DNA from: Patescibacteria group bacterium
Lineage (GTDB): Bacteria; Patescibacteriota; Patescibacteriia; UBA9934
Direction of reading: 5' to 3'
Assembly: GCA_041666145.1 (NCBI GenBank)
Contig: JBAYHK010000001.1
Location: 67,810 to 131,809, forward strand
Length of the DNA stretch: 64,000 bases
Shown here: one piece after another, positions 8,834 through 63,373 of the stretch
How positions within the stretch are numbered: the first letter of the stretch is position 1
Layout: the number at the start of each line of letters is the position of its first letter
Translations under genes and position numbers: made by a program
Notes under the pieces: generated by a model
Databases searched by the model: none
The model's input: the letters and a program-made list of their open reading frames with translations, nothing else
Told to the model about the DNA's origin: nothing

Positions 8834-9018
8834 AATCTTAGCCGTTCTCTATAAACTCCATAATGCGTCATGTGAGAATTGAAAACAACGCAAAAGAACA
8901 CACTCTGTGGATAAAGTATGGATATCCCTGTTTATATTCGGTGTCTATGTTAATAATACATATTTGTCTACACCTTTGTAGACAAACTTATTCGATGAAA
9001 TCGGAGTTTATCAACAAG

Positions 9019-9032
9019 GTTTCACGTGAAAC
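9019..9032. promoter_or_regulatory. parS: parS site 1 (perfect palindrome GTTTCACGTGAAAC; matches ParB-binding consensus tGTTNCACGTGAAACa)
   Basis: Exact 14 bp palindrome, extended gGTTTCACGTGAAACat. Confidence 0.7.
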
Positions 9033-9243
9033 ATCGAAAATATAACTCTCTCTCCGGCCTTGCAGCCGGGGTTTCTCGTGCTAATCGATCGTTCGTTCTC
9101 GCTACTCATCTTGAAGCGAGCTCGAATGGAGACTGCATCCTCGACCTAACGGTACGAGGCTTTACGCTGGACGAATAAAAACTAAACGAGAAATCCAGGA
9201 GCAAAATTGCCCTAAGGCGCCATTTTCACAAATCCTAAAAACT

Positions 9244-9257
9244 GTTTCACGTGAAAC
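9244..9257. promoter_or_regulatory. parS: parS site 2 (TGTTTCACGTGAAACA)
   Basis: Exact 16 bp match to the firmicute-type parS consensus. Confidence 0.7.
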
Positions 9258-9466
9258 ATTAAAATCGGATGACGGCAAATCTCTAGACGGCAAACCAATT
9301 CAAAAATCTCCTTTTAAGGGTTTTCCTCGCAGCTTGCTGCGTTTCCACTCTTAGGCAGAAGAAGCTAATCAATTGAGCCCCGATGCCTCGCCGAAGCTCT
9401 GCGAGGGCACAGCTTGCTGCGAGGAGGTTCATCGATAATTTCCGAACAAATCAATTCAACCCATTT

Positions 9467-9588: not shown

Positions 9589-9684
9589 CAAATTTTGACC
9601 TTAGGCGAGATTTAAATCTCGAACTCCTTTCTTTTTCAGAACCAAATCTGAAAATCAATAGTCTCGAAGCCCATTCCAAGATAT

Positions 9685-9698
9685 GTTTCACGTGAAAC
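9685..9698. promoter_or_regulatory. parS: parS site 4 (core of 22 bp perfect palindrome ATATGTTTCACGTGAAACATAT)
   Basis: Exact palindrome between tRNA-Ala and tRNA-Arg. Confidence 0.7.
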
Positions 9699-9745
9699 AT
9701 ATCTTTACATCCAATTCTTCAACTAAAAAATTTCAGATCAAAACC

Positions 9746-16224: not shown

Positions 16225-17199
16225 TCAAGCTTTTGTAGCTCCTTTGTCATGAAACTTCTGATGAACTCTCTTCAATTCTTTATCCGTAACATGCGTATAA
16301 ACCTGTGTCGTAGTAATCGACTCATGGCCAAGGAGCGACTGGACAGAGCGAATATCGGCGCCATTTCGGAGAAGATCGGTAGCAAAAGTGTGACGAAGGG
16401 TATGAGGGGTGACAGGTTTCGTAATGCCGGCAAGTCGCGCGTAGCGGTCAACAATACGCTGCACCGATCGAGGAGTAAGCGGAGCCGCTTCTGGTGCCTG
16501 ATTCTTTGCTCGATCGTGACGAACAAAAAGAAACTGCGAAACGTCATGACGGTGATCGATATAAGCTTTCAGGGCTCGCTTCGCTGCGTCGGAAACAAAA
16601 ACAATTCTGTGCTTGCTTCCTTTTCCTTTGATTGTGAATTCATCACGTTTTAAGTTCACTTGTTCTATCAGAAGCCCTGCACATTCAGAAACACGAAGAC
16701 CCGTTGAAAACAAAAGTTCAAGGATCGCCTTGTCGCGCAGTCCAACGATCGTTTCATCTTCACTCGGCCCAGACAAGAATCGAGCAAGCTCTTCTGGTTC
16801 AAGAAACATCACGTGACGTGATCCTTGTTTTGCGAGTTCGATTTTATCTGCAGAAAGCGTCTTTATGTCTCGTTTTGCAAGATATTTCAAGAATGCTCGA
16901 AGAGCGATGAGATGATAGTTCTGTGTGTTTTTCTGCAGCGACTCTTCATCTCTTCCCGCGATTTCGCGATTCAAATACAGCCGATACTTTCGAACCATCT
17001 CTAGTGTTATTTCTCCCGGATTTGGGTCTTTTGCCCAAGTAGCAAATCGATCGAGATAGAAATGATAGTTCCGCGTGGTTTTTTCACTCCTTCCGCGCTC
17101 AATCTCAAGATACTCACAAAATTCCTTCATTAACGTTCGCATTCCCTTTGCCATATTCTCTATTGTACCGCTTTTGCGACACAAAGTAGACGAAGCCAT
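16225..17199 (-). CDS. Tyrosine site-specific recombinase, XerC/XerD family (probable start at internal Met near 17154)
   Basis: N-terminal SAM-like core-binding domain (FCEYLEIERGRSEKTTRNYHFYLDRF). C-terminal catalytic motifs HTLRHTFATDLL and LLGHESITTTQVYTHV. Confidence 0.85.
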   Translation of the reverse strand: MASSTLCRKSGTIENMAKGMRTLMKEFCEYLEIERGRSEKTTRNYHFYLDRFATWAKDPNPGEITLEMVRKYRLYLNREIAGRDEESLQKNTQNYHLIALRAFLKYLAKRDIKTLSADKIELAKQGSRHVMFLEPEELARFLSGPSEDETIVGLRDKAILELLFSTGLRVSECAGLLIEQVNLKRDEFTIKGKGSKHRIVFVSDAAKRALKAYIDHRHDVSQFLFVRHDRAKNQAPEAAPLTPRSVQRIVDRYARLAGITKPVTPHTLRHTFATDLLRNGADIRSVQSLLGHESITTTQVYTHVTDKELKRVHQKFHDKGATKA

Positions 17200-28896: not shown

Positions 28897-28910
28897 CCCA
28901 GACATCAAAC

Positions 28911-28939
28911 GGCCCCGACTCTCGTGTAGAGTCGGGGCC
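28911..28939. terminator. Bidirectional intrinsic terminator hairpin GGCCCCGACTCtcgtgtaGAGTCGGGGCC (copy 1 of 4 near-identical copies)
   Basis: 11 bp perfect stem with 7 nt loop, followed by gtgagttt. Serves tig (+) and the convergent small gene (-). Confidence 0.8.
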
Positions 28940-28979
28940 GTGAGTTTGTCGAAACGCTTCAATGGCCTCGACAGACGTC

Positions 28980-29186
28980 CTAATTTAGAGGAGTTGTTTT
29001 AGAAACAAGACCCGCGATACCAATTTGCAGGACCAAGAGCCCGAAAACTGGCAAGGACACGGATACGCATCCAAAAGACGCGATACTAGTTGATACGTCT
29101 CTTGGATCATAGACCCAGGAGCAGAAGATAAACGCGGCTAATCCAAGAAACACTAACGCCCAAAAACCGATTCTCTTGACCGTCAC
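28980..29186 (-). CDS. Small two-TM membrane protein, cassette-array paralog 1 (68 aa)
   Basis: Start codon, basic N-terminus, two hydrophobic helices. RBS agagaggtg upstream. Paralogous to the next three ORFs. Confidence 0.6.
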   Translation of the reverse strand: MTVKRIGFWALVFLGLAAFIFCSWVYDPRDVSTSIASFGCVSVSLPVFGLLVLQIGIAGLVSKTTPLN

Positions 29187-29471
29187 TATTCACCTCTCTT
29201 TTCATTACGAAGCTTGGTGGTTGTTTTCAGATCAAGCGCATCTTCGCAGTTTGTGCTTGAACGGGGAATAATGGCACAAATTAGCCAAAAGAACAAGACG
29301 ACGATTTGGGTGAAATATTGATCAGTTCCCAGAAGATTTCATGTTTGAGCTTACCGTAAACGAGTTGGAATCTTAAGGTGCCAAATTGGTACCTCAAGTT
29401 GGGGCGGTCAACGATTGCTCATTGATGATTCAGAAAAGCCGAAAATCGGTTTCAAGAAAAGATAATCAAAC

Positions 29472-29500
29472 GGCCCCGGCTCTCGCGTAGAGTCGGGGCC
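29472..29500. terminator. Terminator hairpin copy 2 (GGCCCCGGCTCtcgcgtaGAGTCGGGGCC)
   Basis: Near-identical to copy 1, immediately 3' of the minus-strand small ORF 29545..29739. Confidence 0.75.
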
Positions 29501-29544
29501 GTGAGTTTTTTGGGCGTGCCGAAGGCCTCAATGGAAACCCTGAC

Positions 29545-29739
29545 TCATCTCCTTGGGGGGGAAAGGCAGAAACCCAAAAGACCAACAGCGATGCCCATGA
29601 GTCCGCCGAAAATGCCGATTACTCTCGTAACAAAGATCACCGCTGCATCAGAACTACCTACTGGCTCGTAAAAAGCGAAAGATACGAGCAACACGAGCCC
29701 AAAAAGAATCACCAGCAAATAACGGAATCTTCGACTCAC
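29545..29739 (-). CDS. Small two-TM membrane protein, cassette-array paralog 2 (64 aa)
   Basis: MSRRFRYLLVILFGLVLLVSFAFYEPVGSSDAAVIFVTRVIGIFGGLMGIAVGLLGFCLSPPRR. Confidence 0.6.
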   Translation of the reverse strand: MSRRFRYLLVILFGLVLLVSFAFYEPVGSSDAAVIFVTRVIGIFGGLMGIAVGLLGFCLSPPRR

Positions 29740-29876
29740 AGTTCACCTCTCTCTTTCCACGGAGTTTGAAGGTTATTTTCAATTCAAGCCCATCTCCGTA
29801 GTTTGTGCTTGAACGAGGAATAATGGCACAAGTTAGCCAAAAGAACAAGGCTAAAATCATTCGAATGACATCAAAC

Positions 29877-29905
29877 GGCTCCGACTCTCGTGTAGAGTTG
29901 GGGCC
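29877..29905. terminator. Terminator hairpin copy 3 (GGCTCCGACTCtcgtgtaGAGTTGGGGCC)
   Basis: Same hairpin with compensatory C/T and T/G changes, 3' of ORF 29952..30143. Also forms the 3' end of a conserved plus-strand 27-codon ORF (29823..29909, MAQVSQKNKAKIIRMTSNGSDSRVELGP). Confidence 0.75.
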
Positions 29906-29951
29906 GTGAGTTTTTTGAAGCGTTTCGAATCTCTCGATAAGCACCCTGACC

Positions 29952-30143
29952 CTATCTTCTCGAACGAAACAGGCCGAAAAGGCCAACGGCAATGCCTACC
30001 AGCGAACTGAAGACGCCGAATACTTGCACGACATACATCGTCGCCACATCAGCCGAGCCATCTTTTGGCCCATAAAAACCAAAGAAGATAAGACACGCCA
30101 ATCCGCAAAGAATCAGCAACAAAGAACGGATTCCTCTAAACAT
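29952..30143 (-). CDS. Small two-TM membrane protein, cassette-array paralog 3 (63 aa)
   Basis: MFRGIRSLLLILCGLACLIFFGFYGPKDGSADVATMYVVQVFGVFSSLVGIAVGLFGLFRSRR, about 50% identical to paralog 2. Confidence 0.6.
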   Translation of the reverse strand: MFRGIRSLLLILCGLACLIFFGFYGPKDGSADVATMYVVQVFGVFSSLVGIAVGLFGLFRSRR

Positions 30144-30281
30144 TATTCACCTCTCTCTTTTTTGCGAAGTTTGAAGGTTGTCTTCGAATCAAGCGCGTCT
30201 CCACAGTTTGCGCTTGAACGAGGAATAATGGCACAAGTTAGCCAAAAGAACAAGGCTAAAATCATTCGAATGACATCAAAC

Positions 30282-30310
30282 GGCTCCGACTCTCGTGTAG
30301 AGTTGGGGCC
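30282..30310. terminator. Terminator hairpin copy 4 (degenerate downstream T-tract)
   Basis: Same stem-loop. The flanking ~110 bp is about 95% identical to the copy-3 region. Confidence 0.6.
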
Positions 30311-30335
30311 GTTCGTATTTGCTGGGAACCTATTT

Positions 30336-30581
30336 CTAATTCGGATGTTTCAAGCTCCTCTGTCTGCAAAACGTCCGAACTTCTTCAAATCCAGCCGCCA
30401 TGGCCAGAAGCCAAACAACGGACAAGAGAACACAGAGCGCGATTGCAACAAATGGATGCTCCCTCCACAGTACAAAACGGCTCCTCGTTCCATGATCGAG
30501 CAAAATCGCCATCACAAAAAAGCTCGTGACGCTCAATGCCGCATAGAAAAACACCCTCAACCAAAGTAGCCGACTGGACAC
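30336..30581 (-). CDS. Small membrane protein, divergent cassette-array member 4 (81 aa)
   Basis: MSSRLLWLRVFFYAALSVTSFFVMAILLDHG...VAIALCVLLSVVWLLAMAAGF. Two TM helices. Same position and orientation as the other array members. Confidence 0.5.
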   Translation of the reverse strand: MSSRLLWLRVFFYAALSVTSFFVMAILLDHGTRSRFVLWREHPFVAIALCVLLSVVWLLAMAAGFEEVRTFCRQRSLKHPN

Positions 30582-34904: not shown

Positions 34905-35002
34905 TTATCCACTCTTTTTGCCACCTTATCCACACTTTCATCCACTTTTCGACAAAATTGACGGCCTTTACACCTGTGGACAATTGGCTATGCTGTGGCC
35001 AA
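34905..35002. promoter_or_regulatory. DnaA-box cluster in rpmH-dnaA intergenic region (TTATCCACT, TTATCCACA, TCATCCACT, TGTGGACAA, TGTGGCCAA)
   Basis: Five boxes within 100 bp, including one perfect consensus. Classical oriC / dnaA promoter context. Confidence 0.7.
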
Positions 35003-35056
35003 TCGTCACGTCTGTCAGGGGATTTACGCCCTGTCACGTTGGTTGCCATCGAGACT

Positions 35057-36448
35057 ATGAATACCCACGAGCTTTGGGAGGCTGTTCTAGGAGAATTGGA
35101 GCTTGTTGTTAGCAAGGCGCATTTCACTACGTGGTTCAGACATACGTTCATCTGTGACTACAAGAATGGGGAAGTTGTTATTGGCATTCCGAATACCATT
35201 ACCCAACAATGGATCAGCAAAAAGCATCATCGAGACATCATTGAGAGCATCCAAAACATCACCAACCAATCCGTTCGTAGTCTTACCTATCGTGTCGCGA
35301 TAAAAACAAACGCTACGCAGCCACTCATTATTGAAGAAAAGAAGCCGCTCATTCCAGAGGCGCACGAAGATTACGGATTCATCCCAACCGGAGGCTCTGC
35401 GGAGGGCGCCACAGGAACAGGAACGATCACAGTAAATCCTTCATACACATTCCAGACCTTCGTTGTTGGCAAACAGAATGAGCTCGCTCATGCAGCCGCA
35501 CAAGCAGTGGCAGCACAACCAGGCGGCGCCTATAATCCGCTGTTCATCTACGGAGGCGTCGGGCTCGGCAAAACGCATCTTCTTCACGCCATCGCAAACG
35601 AAATGCGCCGCCGCAATCCAAGCGTTCGAATTCTTTACGTCACCTGTGAACGCTTCACCAACGACTTCATCAACGCGATTCGTTCAGGAAAGGGAAAAGA
35701 ATTCAAAGACCGCTACCGCAACGTCGACCTTCTTCTTATTGATGACATTCAGTTCATCACAGGAAAAGAAGGAACACAGGAGGAATTTTTCCACACATTC
35801 AACGCGCTTCACCAAGAACAGCGTCAAATCGTCATTTCGTCAGACCGTCCACCAAAATCCATAGCAAGTCTTGAAAAGCGACTGCAGTCACGACTCGAAT
35901 GGGGAATGCTTGTAGATATTGGAATGCCAGATCTTGAAACGCGCATCGCCATTTTGCAAAAGAAATGCATGGAGAAAGCCTTTCAACTCGATCGTGAAAT
36001 TCTTCATTACGTCGCATCGAACATCTACTCGAACATTCGCGAGCTTGAAGGCGCACTGAACAAAATCATCGCCATCCACCAATTCCGCAACATCGAACCA
36101 ACTCTCGAAAGCGTAAAGCCGATCATTACAAGCTTTGAATCTGAAAATGTTCGGAAGACCGTTACTCCACGCCAGCTCATCTTAGTAGTCTCTGAATATT
36201 TCGACATCACCATTGAAGACATCCTTGGAAAGTCTCGCGAAAAAAAGCTCGCCTTTCCACGCCAGATCATCATGTATCTCATGCGTGAAGAGATGAAAAC
36301 GTCATACCCTGCGATCGGAAACGAACTTGGCGGACGCGACCACACCACTGCAATGCACGCCTACGGCAAAATCGCGAACCTCTTAAAAGAGGATGAAAAA
36401 CTTCAAAAGGATCTCGAACTTATAAAACAGAAACTTTACGCGGGATAA
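35057..36448 (+). CDS. dnaA: Chromosomal replication initiator DnaA
   Basis: AAA+ Walker A GGVGLGKTHLL. Box VII and C-terminal DNA-binding domain. ORF-track start trimmed to MNTHELW. Confidence 0.95.
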   Translation: MNTHELWEAVLGELELVVSKAHFTTWFRHTFICDYKNGEVVIGIPNTITQQWISKKHHRDIIESIQNITNQSVRSLTYRVAIKTNATQPLIIEEKKPLIPEAHEDYGFIPTGGSAEGATGTGTITVNPSYTFQTFVVGKQNELAHAAAQAVAAQPGGAYNPLFIYGGVGLGKTHLLHAIANEMRRRNPSVRILYVTCERFTNDFINAIRSGKGKEFKDRYRNVDLLLIDDIQFITGKEGTQEEFFHTFNALHQEQRQIVISSDRPPKSIASLEKRLQSRLEWGMLVDIGMPDLETRIAILQKKCMEKAFQLDREILHYVASNIYSNIRELEGALNKIIAIHQFRNIEPTLESVKPIITSFESENVRKTVTPRQLILVVSEYFDITIEDILGKSREKKLAFPRQIIMYLMREEMKTSYPAIGNELGGRDHTTAMHAYGKIANLLKEDEKLQKDLELIKQKLYAG

Positions 36449-37868: not shown

Positions 37869-37920
37869 GGATTAAAAAACGTCCTAATTCTCTTTCGAGT
37901 TTTGGGACGTTTTTGTTATT

Positions 37921-38012
37921 TCGTCATTGCGAGGAAGGTAATCCTGACGAAGCGATCCAGGCCAGGCTCACATAAAGATTGCTTCGTTAGGATTACCTTC
38001 CTCGCAATGGCT
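37921..38012. repeat. REP/MITE-like element copy A: 29 bp inverted repeat CATTGCGAGGAAGGTAATCCTGACGAAGC / GCTTCGTTAGGATTACCTTCCTCGCAATG with 27 nt spacer
   Basis: Seen directly. The same about 40 bp motif recurs at 52401 and 60240, always just after a terminator. Confidence 0.7.
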
Positions 38013-38034
38013 GACCTCTAATCAGTGAGCGAGT

Positions 38035-46068: not shown

Positions 46069-46523
46069 AGTTCGATTGTTGCATTTTTTGCGGTGACATT
46101 TCCAGAAAGGACTTCGCGGACATGATCGCTACACTGTTCGAGGTATGCGCGAAAATGCGGAGAGAGATTGAGTTTGAGCGCATCGTCGAACGTGAACCAG
46201 TCAAGCCGCTGCCCTTCACTTGCGAGACGAACTTGGCTGTACTCCGTCTTGTTGAGGTGGGCCGCGAATCGATGGACGACTTTTCTGTCTGTATACACGT
46301 CTATCCCTATTGATTCGAGCTTGCCTGGCACGATGTCGAGCTCTTCTTTAAGCTCTCTAAATGCTGCATTGAGCGCGGATTCATTTTCTTCAATCCCTCC
46401 ACCTGGCATATTCCAACAATTTGGATATGGAATATTGGGATTGTTGTCGCGTTGAACGAGTACAAACTTTTTTTCAAAAATGACGAAAACTTTGGCTCCC
46501 GGCTTGGCCATATTAGCTTTCAA
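46065..46523 (-). CDS. NUDIX hydrolase
   Basis: Nudix box GGGIEENESALNAAFRELKEELDI. Confidence 0.85.
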   Translation of the reverse strand: MKANMAKPGAKVFVIFEKKFVLVQRDNNPNIPYPNCWNMPGGGIEENESALNAAFRELKEELDIVPGKLESIGIDVYTDRKVVHRFAAHLNKTEYSQVRLASEGQRLDWFTFDDALKLNLSPHFRAYLEQCSDHVREVLSGNVTAKNATIEL

Positions 46524-51286: not shown

Positions 51287-52351
51287 ATGAACCTCGATCA
51301 CAACAAAACATACGCAACGTTGGATGCTACAGACATCCGTTTTGGCATTGAACATTTGCCAGAGCAAATTCGTATTGCGTGGCACGAAACGCGAGAACTC
51401 ATTCTCCCGGAATCATTTCGTCGTGCATCGAATATCGTCGTTGCCGGGATGGGCGGCTCTGCACTTGGTTCGCACATGTTGGCGACTGCATTTTCTGATC
51501 GTTTGAGCGTTCCCATTTCTATCGTCAATGACTACCACCTGCCAGCATGCGTCACAAAAAAGACGTTGGTGATTCTGTCGAGTTTTTCTGGAACAACTGA
51601 AGAAGTTCTCGCATGTTCTTTTGAAGCAGAAAAAATCGGCGCGATGATTGTGGTTATTGCTTCAGGAGGTGAGCTCGCAAAACGAGCAACGAAAAAGAAG
51701 TGGCCACTTTATCAATTTGATCCAGGAGAACTTGCTCGTCAGCCGCGCATGGGAACGGGTTTTTCACTTGCTGGAGTGCTCGGCATTCTTGAGCGCGCAA
51801 GGCTTATGAAGATTTCAGATGCAGAAATCGACAGGATGGTTATTGCGATGGACGAGGTTATTGATACATGCGCAGTGGATGTTCCAGCAAAAGAAAATCC
51901 AGCAAAGACTGTTGCAAAGTCCATGAAGGATTCAGTGGTTTTTCTCATAGCCGCAGAGCATCTTGTTGGTGTTTCTCACATGTTTACAAACTGTATTCAT
52001 GAAACTGCAAAACAATTCGCTGTACATTTCCCGCTTCCAGAATTGAATCACCACTTACTTGAGGGATTGACGTATCCAAAGTCTTTCTCATCAAAAGCGG
52101 TTGCATTCATGATGCAATCGTCGCTGTATAGCGAGCGCATTCAAAAGCGCATTGTTGTGACAGCAGACTCTCTTGAGCGCCAAGGCTTAACGGTCATTGA
52201 TTACGAAGCGCACGGAACGGATCGTTTAGAAGAGGTGGGTGAAATGTTGCAGTTTGCCAGCTTTGTTGCGTATTACATGGCCATGCAAAACGGCGTTCAT
52301 CCAGAAGAGATTCCATTCGTCGATGCATTCAAGAAAGAAATGGCGAAATAA
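51287..52351 (+). CDS. Bifunctional phosphoglucose/phosphomannose isomerase (SIS domain, archaeal-type PGI/PMI)
   Basis: VAGMGGSALG and ILSSFSGTTEE SIS motifs. Size and architecture of PGI/PMI family. Strong terminator at 52353..52392. Confidence 0.75.
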   Translation: MNLDHNKTYATLDATDIRFGIEHLPEQIRIAWHETRELILPESFRRASNIVVAGMGGSALGSHMLATAFSDRLSVPISIVNDYHLPACVTKKTLVILSSFSGTTEEVLACSFEAEKIGAMIVVIASGGELAKRATKKKWPLYQFDPGELARQPRMGTGFSLAGVLGILERARLMKISDAEIDRMVIAMDEVIDTCAVDVPAKENPAKTVAKSMKDSVVFLIAAEHLVGVSHMFTNCIHETAKQFAVHFPLPELNHHLLEGLTYPKSFSSKAVAFMMQSSLYSERIQKRIVVTADSLERQGLTVIDYEAHGTDRLEEVGEMLQFASFVAYYMAMQNGVHPEEIPFVDAFKKEMAK

Positions 52352-52400
52352 AAAATTCCCTCTCAGAAAGTGAGAGGGAATTTTTTTTATTTCGTCCTTT

Positions 52401-52494
52401 GTCATTGCGAGGAGGTAATCCGACGAAGCAATCTTGGTTTGTTCGTGTAAAGATTGCTTTCTGGCCATGCTGGATGCTGCGCTCGCGATGACGG
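52401..52494. repeat. REP/MITE-like element copy B (GTCATTGCGAGGAGGTAATCCGACGAAGCAATCTTGG plus degenerate inverted arm)
   Basis: Same motif as copy A. Follows the PGI/PMI terminator. Confidence 0.65.
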
Positions 52495-52520
52495 ATAAGT
52501 ATCTTTTTGTGAGCTAATAG

Positions 52521-52760
52521 CTACTTGAAAAGTTCGTCTCGTTTTACTTTCGCGATAGCGAACAGATAAATGATTTCTAGAATTCCCATCGTGTTTACAA
52601 GAAGAAGCACGATGAACCACCACGGCTGCTTTCGTTTTGCAGAGTGCCAGAGTGCGAGGCCTTTCCAGAAGAAGGACCACACAAGAAGAATAATAAATGG
52701 CCCAGTAATCGCAACCGGAAGTCCAAACCCCACGTTGAGTGACTGAAGAGTGTTCATCAT
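52521..52760 (-). CDS. Small two-TM membrane protein
   Basis: 79 aa, two hydrophobic helices. Confidence 0.45.
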   Translation of the reverse strand: MMNTLQSLNVGFGLPVAITGPFIILLVWSFFWKGLALWHSAKRKQPWWFIVLLLVNTMGILEIIYLFAIAKVKRDELFK

Positions 52761-52855
52761 ATGGTGTAAGCATGCACTTTTTCAAAAGACTTGTCGATCA
52801 TGCATTCTTTCTCATTTGCATAATATAATGCATACTTTGTTCGATCTTTATCCTG

Positions 52856-55585: not shown

Positions 55586-56027
55586 GACTTCCTCTCTTTC
55601 TTGTTTTTGGCGATTATCGCCAGTGGTTAAATCGAACGGTGGAAACTAACAGAGAAGTGTAGCAGAAAATGTTTAAACTTTCAATGTTTCGTTCGAATGC
55701 AAAAGGAGGAACTCAAAAAGTCTAAGAAGGCGATGACGTCGTTGCTCAATGAATTAAGAGAAGCGGTCAAGAAGCCAGGAGTTTTTGGTGGTGGATTACA
55801 GACAGCTGTTAGCGCAATCTTGGAAAGAAAAGGGAAGAAAAAGTAATGGTTGTGCGAGTAATACAAAACGACTCAGTGATGAGTCGTTTTGTAGTTGCAG
55901 CGATTGTTGATTTCTTTGTAAGAGCGAAGTGATGCTACTTTTAGGGAATATGGATGCAGTAGTTTGCGAGCTGAATTAAAAATGCCGCCCGTCGTATGTG
56001 ACGACAAGCGGCAGTATGGGCGAGCTT

Positions 56028-57785: not shown

Positions 57786-57906
57786 CGGACGCTTGATTTG
57801 CAACAAAACGACCTATTAAAAGGTCGTTTTGTTGCCGAACATTTGTCGTTCTTTTTGTTATTTTAGCTCCGTGAGCGATCCCCAACATAGCGCTAAGAGT
57901 GAGGTG

Positions 57907-60189: not shown

Positions 60190-60239
60190 GTAATTGATTA
60201 CGATGAAAAATACAGCTCTACATTTGAGCTGTATTTTTT

Positions 60240-60280
60240 GTCATTGCGAGGACGGTAATCCAGACGAAGCAATCTTGGTT
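60240..60280. repeat. REP/MITE-like element copy C (GTCATTGCGAGGACGGTAATCCAGACGAAGCAATCTTGGTT), single arm
   Basis: Follows terminator aatacagctctacatttgagctgtatttttt. Confidence 0.65.
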
Positions 60281-60935
60281 ACAACGTTGGACTGTCTTGT
60301 TTCAGTGTTTCTTTGTTGACTTCTTTTGCTTGCCAGAGGACTTGAGTGATCGTATGGCCAAGATGCGTGACTCCCATATCGTAATTACTAGGGTTACGAG
60401 GATTGGTAATGGGCTTGATTCTTCCATACTCTTCGGATCCGATGTATTTCGCGGTAGTACTATCGAAATTAAAGACGGGGCTGACGTTTCTTACGGATGG
60501 AAAGCCGTATTCAAATGGAACTGATCCCTGTTTTAATTCAGCGGTGTGTATTTCACACGAATCTTCTCCTGTTGTTAGCGCAAAACCAGGGTATTCCATA
60601 AGCCCCTTTAATTTTTTTACCGCAAGAGGATCAACGAAGAAAATGTGGTTTGCGATCGGTTGCAATTTATACGTATTGTCATCCTCATCATCCATTCCCG
60701 GAAACTTTGGCTGGAATCGCAAGCATGACCCGTCATGAAGAACAAAATAATGTGATCCATTTTCTGTTCGGAATATAGAAGAAAAGCGTTCTTTTTCTTT
60801 AAGCAGCTGCTCAAGAAGCTTGTCGACTCCCTTTTCGTCATAGTCGGATTCGCAGATTTTTTCTTTGAGCCCTTCTCTACTTATTGGAGATAGCTTCGGT
60901 TTTTCTGCGGTGAATTTTTCAAATGAATTCGACAT
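60279..60935 (-). CDS. Hypothetical cytoplasmic protein
   Basis: 218 aa. No motif recognised. Confidence 0.45.
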   Translation of the reverse strand: MSNSFEKFTAEKPKLSPISREGLKEKICESDYDEKGVDKLLEQLLKEKERFSSIFRTENGSHYFVLHDGSCLRFQPKFPGMDDEDDNTYKLQPIANHIFFVDPLAVKKLKGLMEYPGFALTTGEDSCEIHTAELKQGSVPFEYGFPSVRNVSPVFNFDSTTAKYIGSEEYGRIKPITNPRNPSNYDMGVTHLGHTITQVLWQAKEVNKETLKQDSPTL

Positions 60936-63211: not shown

Positions 63212-63373
63212 AGCGCGTGAGCATCAATGATTTCGTGCGAAACTTATCGGAAGATGAGCGTCCAGGTGTACACAAAGCAAAACAACCCCGAAAAGGGTTG
63301 TTTTGTAATCGACAAGGCCCTATTGGTCGCGCCGTGTGCTTGAGGTACTCGGGTTGTCCGATAAGACGTTCTC

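Follow-up and report, generated by a model that had tools for sequence, protein, structure and literature searches.

A REP-like hairpin repeat at three terminator-proximal sites of a CPR genome, with relatives on phages and plasmids

Three convergent-gene gaps beside a replication origin

The DNA analyzed here is a 64-kb stretch, which we call the window. Its DnaN is 72% identical to that of Candidatus Uhrbacteria GW2011_GWD2_52_7, an identical gene is present in the MAG GCA_041660465.1, and more distant DnaN matches (58-66% identity) are labelled 'Patescibacteria group'. We therefore take the host to be a CPR bacterium, Uhrbacteria-like. The sign of the GC skew switches at about 36 kb, beside dnaA (34958-36448) and dnaN, so the window spans the replication origin. 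To the right of this point, a search of the window with the 13-mer GTCATTGCGAGGA found exact matches on the + strand at 37923, 52401 and 60240, as well as a match with one mismatch on the - strand (37999-38011). These matches, together with those of a covariance model, R1, that was built from foreign units only, establish that the sites proposed in the initial annotation carry real copies of a repeat. We refer to these copies as A, B and C. All three sites belong to the right replichore, where the lagging-strand template is the + strand; it is on this strand that the best-preserved units have their sense orientation.

Each site is a gap between convergent genes: dnaN and the PBP1A gene for copy A, the genes of a phosphoglucose isomerase (PGI)-like SIS protein and a DUF5652 protein for copy B, and two ORFs without Pfam matches for copy C. 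It had been claimed that all of the sites lie directly 3' of terminators, and there is indeed a strong terminator-like hairpin at each (Table 1). The hairpin following dnaN is preceded by an A-tract and followed by a T-tract, and could therefore work in both directions.

The window contains four good units and one degenerate unit at the three sites, and a scan of all 64 kb with R1 found no other credible unit. Another candidate (46435-46489) is inside a NUDIX gene and was rejected as a chance match. Copies A and B are dimers in which the tags (see below) are on the outside, and copy C is a singleton. Copy A had been described as a 29-bp inverted repeat with one mismatch; it is an inverted repeat, with slightly different dimensions, in that the arms are 33 nt each, are 94% complementary and are separated by a 19-nt gap. 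Folded as one hairpin, it has a predicted energy of -63 kcal/mol (z = -10.5). The left unit of copy A consists, in order, of a CGTC tag, ATTGC, GA, G, GA, the apical hairpin AGG-TAAT-CCT, GA, C, GAA, GCGAT and a CCA tail. The right unit has the same apical hairpin, and its tag is mutated to AGCC. Copy B has one good and one degenerate arm, as previously described. The apical stem of its left unit (GG-TAAT-CC) is shorter by exactly one base pair, and its right unit, CGTC-ATCGC-GA-...-AGAAA-GCAAT-C, retains the outer parts GTCATCGCGAG...AGAAAGCAATC (- strand) and differs in the middle. Copy C is the single arm that had been reported, with a C·A mismatch within its apical stem, and abuts the stop codon of the convergent ORF (60279-60281). 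The tags in the window are CGTC (left unit of A, right unit of B), TGTC (left unit of B, copy C) and the mutated AGCC, while the tail is CCA in the left unit of A and CTT in the other units.

Table 1. Positions of repeat units, neighboring hairpins and associated extra DNA in the window
Feature	Position	Strand	Basis
Terminator-like hairpin 3' of dnaN	37875..37914	+	-21 kcal/mol, z = -6.1
Copy A, left unit	37922..37959	+	R1 match 37918-37961, 40.1 bits, E = 2.6e-8; fold
Spacer between the units of dimer A	37960..37976	.	Sequence; arms 19 nt apart
Copy A, right unit	37977..38012	-	R1 match 37973-38016, 30.9 bits, E = 6.4e-6
Extra ~22-23 nt, TGACCTCTAATCAGTGAGCGAGT, from dimer A to the PBP1A stop codon	38013..38034	.	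Alignment with L299, L300
Terminator hairpin 3' of the PGI-like gene	52350..52386	+	Terminator scan
Copy B, left unit	52400..52435	+	R1 match 52396-52437, 50 bits, E = 6.8e-11
Copy B, right unit, degenerate	52452..52493	-	Fuzzy match; partial R1 match, E = 0.65
Extra ~27 nt, GGATAAGTATCTTTTTGTGAGCTAATAG, from dimer B to the DUF5652 stop codon	52494..52520	.	Alignment with L459, L460, L461
Terminator-like hairpin 3' of a 271-aa ORF	60203..60241	+	-18.7 kcal/mol, z = -6.7
Copy C, single unit	60239..60276	+	R1 match 60235-60278, 44 bits, E = 2.5e-9; ORFs

The units give rise to spurious short ORF calls. For example, a 127-aa ORF crossing copy B (52402-52785, - strand) has no Pfam match and is apparently a spurious frame made by the repeat; the real gene in this region encodes the 79-aa DUF5652 protein (52521-52760).

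Other repeated sequences were also observed in the window. On the - strand, positions 28900-30350 contain an array of 3-4 small (63-81 aa) predicted membrane-protein paralogues (28980-29186, 29545-29739, 29952-30143 and possibly 30336-30581; period 405-561 nt), and the same strong hairpin, AAACGGCCCCGACTCT...AGAGTCGGGGCCGT, follows each of them. Around the tRNA-Ala and tRNA-Arg genes, there are three occurrences of the perfect palindrome TGTTTCACGTGAAACA (9007-9034, 9232-9259 and 9673-9700), which could be a regulator binding site. Finally, hairpins at 55863-55892, 57803-57832 and 63277-63306 have the stem ACAAAACGAC...GTCGTTTTGT in common and differ in their loops; these could be a second small hairpin family, or just similar terminators.

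The single arm as the basic unit

The initial annotation described the family as palindromic elements. The basic unit is a single arm, which is itself a structured hairpin of roughly 35-40 nt, and the 90-bp palindrome consists of two such units, which may have different apical hairpins. Folds of single arms always contain an unpaired GTC, a 5-bp ATTGC/GCAAT stem, an internal loop with GA in its 5' strand and GAA in its 3' strand, and a G-C pair. Above this closing pair, there is often a tandem GA/GA loop followed by the apical hairpin, and the unit ends in a C-Y tail.

We scanned viral contigs with the pattern GTCATTGCGAG-N(6-26)-CGAAGCAATC, and the matches exhibit dozens of unrelated apical hairpins inside invariant outer parts. 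In evaluating such matches, it is important to consider how many might arise by chance. A control pattern with 17 specified bases, GAAGNNAATC, yielded 109 matches in the viral collection, which reflect only chance, and this number implies that approximately 0.4 chance matches are expected for the real pattern, with its 21 specified bases. The real pattern has at least 120 viral matches. Similarly, R1 detected 237 units in 906 kb of unit-bearing contigs (mean 2.4 units per contig) and 0 units in 866 kb of random viral contigs, which were taken from the matches of the control pattern.

Both helices of the unit covary. For the apical helix, an alignment of 109 distinct units contains 131 double-change cells, compared to 52 ± 5 in column shuffles and 15-57 in slid controls. 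The basal helix is beyond the reach of this alignment because the search pattern fixed it, and its covariation is seen in a comparison of sister families, in which the stem is ATTGC/GCAAT, ATTCT/AGAAT or ATTCC/GGAAT. The second of these, GTC-ATTCT-GA...GA-AGAAT-C, occurs in at least 120 viral contigs and is as abundant as the ATTGC family, and the third version, GTC-ATTCC-GA...GA-GGAAT-C, was found in the contig L364 (5672-5770). Viral contigs with sister families include those of the L305-L381 set, and on some contigs (L027, L036 and L040) sister families occur together with the ATTGC family. The closing pair is a standard pair in 202 of 205 distinct inner segments, which are 5-28 nt in length, and is G-C in 98% of the 109-unit alignment.

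Conserved positions extend into the flanks, which thus belong to the element. Among 252 units, 94% have a pyrimidine at position -1 (T in 54%, C in 40%), 98% have one at position +1 and 87% have C or A at position +2. The pyrimidine content of positions -2 to -10 is 62-75%, and the ten upstream bases are poor in G. When the pattern was relaxed to omit tag and tail, the matches that lack GTC had random flanks and look like chance.

Units often occur in pairs. Among pairs of units within 120 nt of each other, 92 have the tags outside (HH), 14 have the tags inside (TT) and 22 are in tandem (HT). Dimers often combine an arm that has the constant apical hairpin with an arm whose hairpin is variable, e.g., in the MAG JBBUEW01, and their spacers can be as short as 2-20 nt. 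Since tandem units are only 12-20 nt apart, we rejected the possibility of CRISPR or solitary CRISPR-like repeats.

Distribution, orientation and empty sites

The idea of a repeat family would have been undermined had the motif been restricted to the three sites of the window, and it is not: the family spans phyla, phages and plasmids. In addition to the exact matches in at least 120 viral contigs mentioned above, the sub-variant with a GG(G)TAATCC(C) apical hairpin was found in species-representative genomes (24 stretches, mainly from MAGs of Patescibacteria, Uhrbacteria and Moraniibacteria, and also from MAGs titled 'uncultured Gammaproteobacteria') and in 37 metagenome stretches, many of them from Hainich H41 groundwater. 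The CPR MAG JBBUEW01 has 7 stretches with the identical variant. The general unit is present on plasmids of Methylosinus trichosporium OB3b (35/35 match), Methylocystis, Novosphingobium, Legionella lytica and Halomonas, and on plasmids of the Nostocales Calothrix, Aulosira, Trichormus and Tolypothrix. The units on the Methylosinus and Legionella plasmids are also in gaps between convergent genes; context statistics beyond the window and plasmid sites are based on crude ORF calls. The viral contigs are real phages, in that genes for portal, capsid, prohead-protease and tail proteins adjoin the units.

One of the genomes with a gammaproteobacterial title, CAYMYA01 (GCA_964394565.1; L297/L123), has a DnaN that is 87% identical to that of the window's host and a matching gene order. 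Its label looks wrong, and it appears to be a relative of the CPR host; further TPA MAGs that bear this title may also be mislabelled.

Within replicons, units tend to share a strand. Among single units, 112 of 126 are on the majority strand of their contig, where 88.6 ± 3.4 are expected. In L074, L013, L024, L026 and related viral contigs, single units number as many as about ten, and all of those on a contig share one strand. We also observed that, in one phage group, the units are on the strand of the structural genes, directly upstream of the ribosome-binding site (RBS), and that, in another group, they are on the opposite strand.

Orthologous sites in relatives of the window's host enabled a direct comparison of filled and empty states. 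The gap between dnaN and the PBP1A gene is 166 nt in the window, 55 nt in L299 (DnaN 98% identical), 54 nt in L300 (90%) and 110 nt in L295 (86%), which also lacks a unit. Likewise, the gap between the PGI-like and DUF5652 genes is 169 nt in the window, 36 nt in L459 and L460 (PGI 95% identical) and 32 nt in L461 (78%), and here the alignment with the empty sites is base for base over the terminator and the ends of both genes. At A and B, the extra DNA separates the T-run of the terminator from the convergent gene's stop codon. A search of roughly 110 kb surrounding dnaN in six related lineages detected no units. As close relatives do not have the element at the orthologous A and B sites, the insertions at these two sites are recent.

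The inserted DNA does not coincide with the dimer. The left junction, TTATTTCGTC, is common to the filled sites A (37916-37925) and B (52391-52400), and copy B has a further CTTTGTC after this junction and before ATTGCG. Overall, the insertions are 20-40 nt longer than the dimer, and the right-hand extras of ~22-28 nt have only GTGAGC in common and lack a counterpart at the empty sites, so that the mobile unit is not cleanly delimited. A direct repeat, TTATT, flanks copy A, and there is nothing comparable at copy B; there is therefore no consistent target duplication.

Candidate explanations and known systems

The initial annotation assigned the repeats to a family of short extragenic palindromes of the REP type. 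This assignment is right, and fits the anatomy, the dimers, the convergent and terminator-proximal sites, and the presence/absence polymorphism. Going further, we consider it reasonably probable that the three sites carry a REP/REPIN-type repeat of the CGTC/TGTC-tagged REP superfamily that is copied in trans via single-stranded DNA. The element would then be non-autonomous DNA, and we infer that an enzyme supplied in trans copies it by way of a hairpin intermediate that is single-stranded. Recognition by this enzyme would involve the tag together with the basal stem and purine loop, and would disregard the apical hairpin. The likeliest candidate would be a Y1/HUH (RAYT-like) transposase whose single-copy gene resides at another genomic location or on a phage or plasmid. 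Insertions of new copies would be expected beside pyrimidine-rich or T-rich runs, which in the window's genome would mean the T-tracts of terminators between convergent genes, where insertions would be tolerated. Effects on the 3' ends of transcripts, if any, would be secondary.

Our searches for such an enzyme covered the window and the surroundings of other units. Within the window, a Pfam scan of approximately 60 substantial ORFs found no Y1 or other transposase, and the sole recombinase is a XerC/D-like protein (16225-17199). The E. coli RayT protein was compared to 16,615 ORFs from 2.9 Mb of unit-bearing DNA, in a single-sequence search of limited sensitivity, and a single weak relative was detected. 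This RAYT-like ORF (L364, 1167-1817) contains an HVH motif and has no flanking units, and a search of the viral contigs for its relatives found two loci with no link to units. A search for RayT homologues returned only enterobacterial proteins. Among 150 ORFs adjacent to units, no family was enriched and none was common to more than 4, while clusters of ORFs near units corresponded to phage structural genes and revealed no common enzyme.

The lack of a transposase in the window and of a family enriched beside units counts against a REP/REPIN-type repeat. However, the absence of a RAYT from a 64-kb window carries little weight. In Neisseria, a RAYT of Group 2 that is present as a single-copy gene is required by the ATTCCCGC...GGGAATC REPINs (bioRxiv 10.1101/2021.07.10.451892). 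By analogy with these CGTC-1 REPINs, a single-copy RAYT may act in trans on the units studied here. The cognate RAYT-like partner that the initial annotation took the pattern to imply is thus a candidate, which our searches neither support nor refute. Two further observations do not sit easily with a REP/REPIN-type repeat. It is unusual for REPs to be near-identical over ~20 nt in CPR, Proteobacteria, Cyanobacteria and phages alike, and this could instead reflect a conserved cellular function. In addition, the inserted DNA exceeds the dimer in length, as described above.

A conserved function is the premise of a different explanation, which we regard as rather unlikely: that the unit is a functional RNA module, i.e., a hairpin that is transcribed and that uses its GA/GAA and GA/GA loops to bind a protein or to protect the ends of transcripts. 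Such a module might be a 3'-UTR stabilizer or terminator helper, or a phage leader upstream of the RBS, and its function would drive its spread. The three copies in the window are beside the ends of genes, in regions that are probably transcribed, and sheared-GA-type loops in combination with a covarying stem are typical of RNA-protein sites. Moreover, in one phage group, sense units are directly upstream of the RBS and ATG, with an orientation relative to conserved phage genes of 35 same to 8 opposite, and Di Nocera et al. (PMC3733652) argue that many REPs are transcribed. However, in the clusters of another phage group the units are antisense (1:8 and 2:14), and the ratio over all contigs is 90:108. 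This group-dependent orientation argues against an obligatory role as sense RNA and fits a polar process at the DNA level, such as replication. Dimers, in addition, provide a sense unit on both strands, and close relatives lack it at the corresponding positions. Nor is there an asymmetry between G·T and A·C mismatches, whose counts (12 versus 13) do not discriminate.

Comparison to known RNAs also did not favor an RNA module. At the gathering score, Rfam models matched only six tRNAs in the 64-kb window, and the matches around copy A were sub-threshold and to generic miRNA hairpins. The GA/GAA loop, on inspection, misfits the consensus of hammerhead and hairpin ribozymes, k-turns and sarcin-ricin loops, and these readings were rejected. 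A literature search with the unit's sequence strings retrieved only unrelated primers.

We think it improbable that the unit is a DNA-level site for a host factor, or a target, that is not itself mobile. It might, for example, be bound by a nucleoid or topology protein, serve as an uptake signal, or be the target at which some other mobile element preferentially integrates. Precedents exist in the interactions of REPs with gyrase and IHF and in the targeting of REPs by IS110-family elements, and dRS3 repeats have been reported as an integration target of Neisseria filamentous prophages. The extreme conservation of tag, basal stem and loop across phyla would be explained by such a site, as would a location beside terminators between convergent genes, where supercoiling accumulates. 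On the other hand, the presence or absence of the element in near-identical strains and the clustering of copies within genomes look like amplification, and there is no integrated element beside the units of the window. We also know of no single host factor that is common to CPR, Cyanobacteria, Proteobacteria and phages and has so specific a site.

The initial annotation also pointed to MITEs. A classical MITE would be a deletion derivative of an IS with a DDE transposase, and the two arms would be its TIRs. Copy A does resemble two 35-bp inverted repeats around a short core, but we judge a MITE very improbable, given that each arm folds independently and occurs alone, that the arms of dimers often have different apical hairpins and can be as little as 2-20 nt apart, that TTATT at copy A only is no consistent target-site duplication, and that no transposase gene bounded by such ends is present in 2.9 Mb.

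Returning to the REP/REPIN-type repeat, what the window by itself contains is an ordinary non-coding repeat that is probably selfish. The broader distribution raises a more speculative proposal, about which we are doubtful: that the Y-GTC / ATTNN / GA...GA(A) / NNAAT-C hairpin is a cosmopolitan horizontal module that phages and plasmids carry into CPR, Proteobacteria and Cyanobacteria, and whose tag and purine loops are read by a putative widespread enzyme or factor, as opposed to a flanking RAYT. If true, the unit would represent a distinct class of REP-like element, with a spread that is independent of any single host lineage. In the usual view, REPs are lineage-specific and accompany a domesticated transposase, whereas this unit has kept ~20 conserved nucleotides and a two-tier fold in CPR bacteria with minimal genomes, on alpha- and gammaproteobacterial and cyanobacterial plasmids, and in phages. 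The mobilizing factor, if found, would explain the spread of CGTC-type repeats, a question that has been open since 2013.

Among known systems, elements of the IS200/IS605 type (Y1/HUH) show a resemblance only. Like our unit, they have an imperfect hairpin with conserved unpaired nucleotides at its foot, generate no target duplication, have a short preferred 5' sequence and are oriented coherently with respect to strand in replicons. In contrast, the unit has no transposase gene between or beside its hairpins, and no defined cleavage or target sites.

The REPIN-RAYT system (Bertels & Rainey 2011, PMC3116915) is closer. It is also based on an inverted doublet of REPs that is capable of forming a hairpin and is presumed to be the replicative unit, singlets also occur, and copy numbers differ between strains. 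The presence/absence polymorphism at A and B, with empty orthologous sites at flanking-protein identities of 98%, 95%, 90%, 86% and 78%, is the counterpart in our data. However, REPIN-RAYT systems are described as vertically inherited and lineage-specific, and their cognate single-copy RAYT is usually flanked by REPs, whereas the unit is nearly unchanged across phyla and is found in phages and plasmids, and no RAYT was found in the window or beside units elsewhere.

The closest resemblance is to the CGTC-tagged REP superfamily, which comprises the families CGTC-1 to CGTC-4 (Di Nocera, De Gregorio & Rocco 2013, BMC Genomics 14:522; PMC3733652). These repeats share with the window's unit an unpaired CGTC/TGTC tag at the 5' end, a stem starting with A-T pairs (ATT...AAT), a short unpaired tail (CCA or C-Y-N, with CCA as the consensus), a predominance of HH dimers, including heterodimers, and a location 3' of coding regions, in gaps between convergent or unidirectional genes. 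Tandem dimers are commoner in the unit's family than is described there, where they are negligible. The article reports no dedicated transposase linked to the repeats. However, the Neisseria REPIN ATTCCCGCGCAGGCGGGAATC is the dRS3 or CGTC-1 repeat, and decays where the RAYT gene is broken (Bertels and Rainey, bioRxiv 10.1101/2021.07.10.451892), so the statement is no longer true for the whole CGTC class.

Sequence and structure set the unit apart from the four families. The intragenic peptides given in Additional file 3 of PMC3733652 correspond to ATTCCCGC...GCGGGAAT for CGTC-1 and ATTGCCGGG...CCCGGCAAT for CGTC-3. Back-translation of the CGTC-3 peptide VIAGLDPAI gives GTCATTGCCGGGCTTGACCCGGCAATC, which has GTCATTGC...GCAATC in common with the unit. 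None of the intragenic peptides of CGTC-1 to CGTC-4 in that file matches ATTGCGAG...CGAAGCAAT, in a comparison based on the peptides. CGTC-1 to CGTC-4 have uninterrupted stems of 8-9 bp and loops of 4-5 nt, whereas the unit has a 5-bp basal stem and a GA/GAA loop. On account of this bulged, two-tier stem and the inner segment of 5-28 nt, we file the unit under none of the four families. The authors note that bulged elements may have escaped their search. They report CGTC repeats in five phyla, and neither CPR/Patescibacteria nor phage genomes are among the hosts named there. Relative to the literature that we accessed, the new features are thus the two-tier bulged architecture with a free apical hairpin, the presence in CPR bacteria and phages, and the clean recent insertion.
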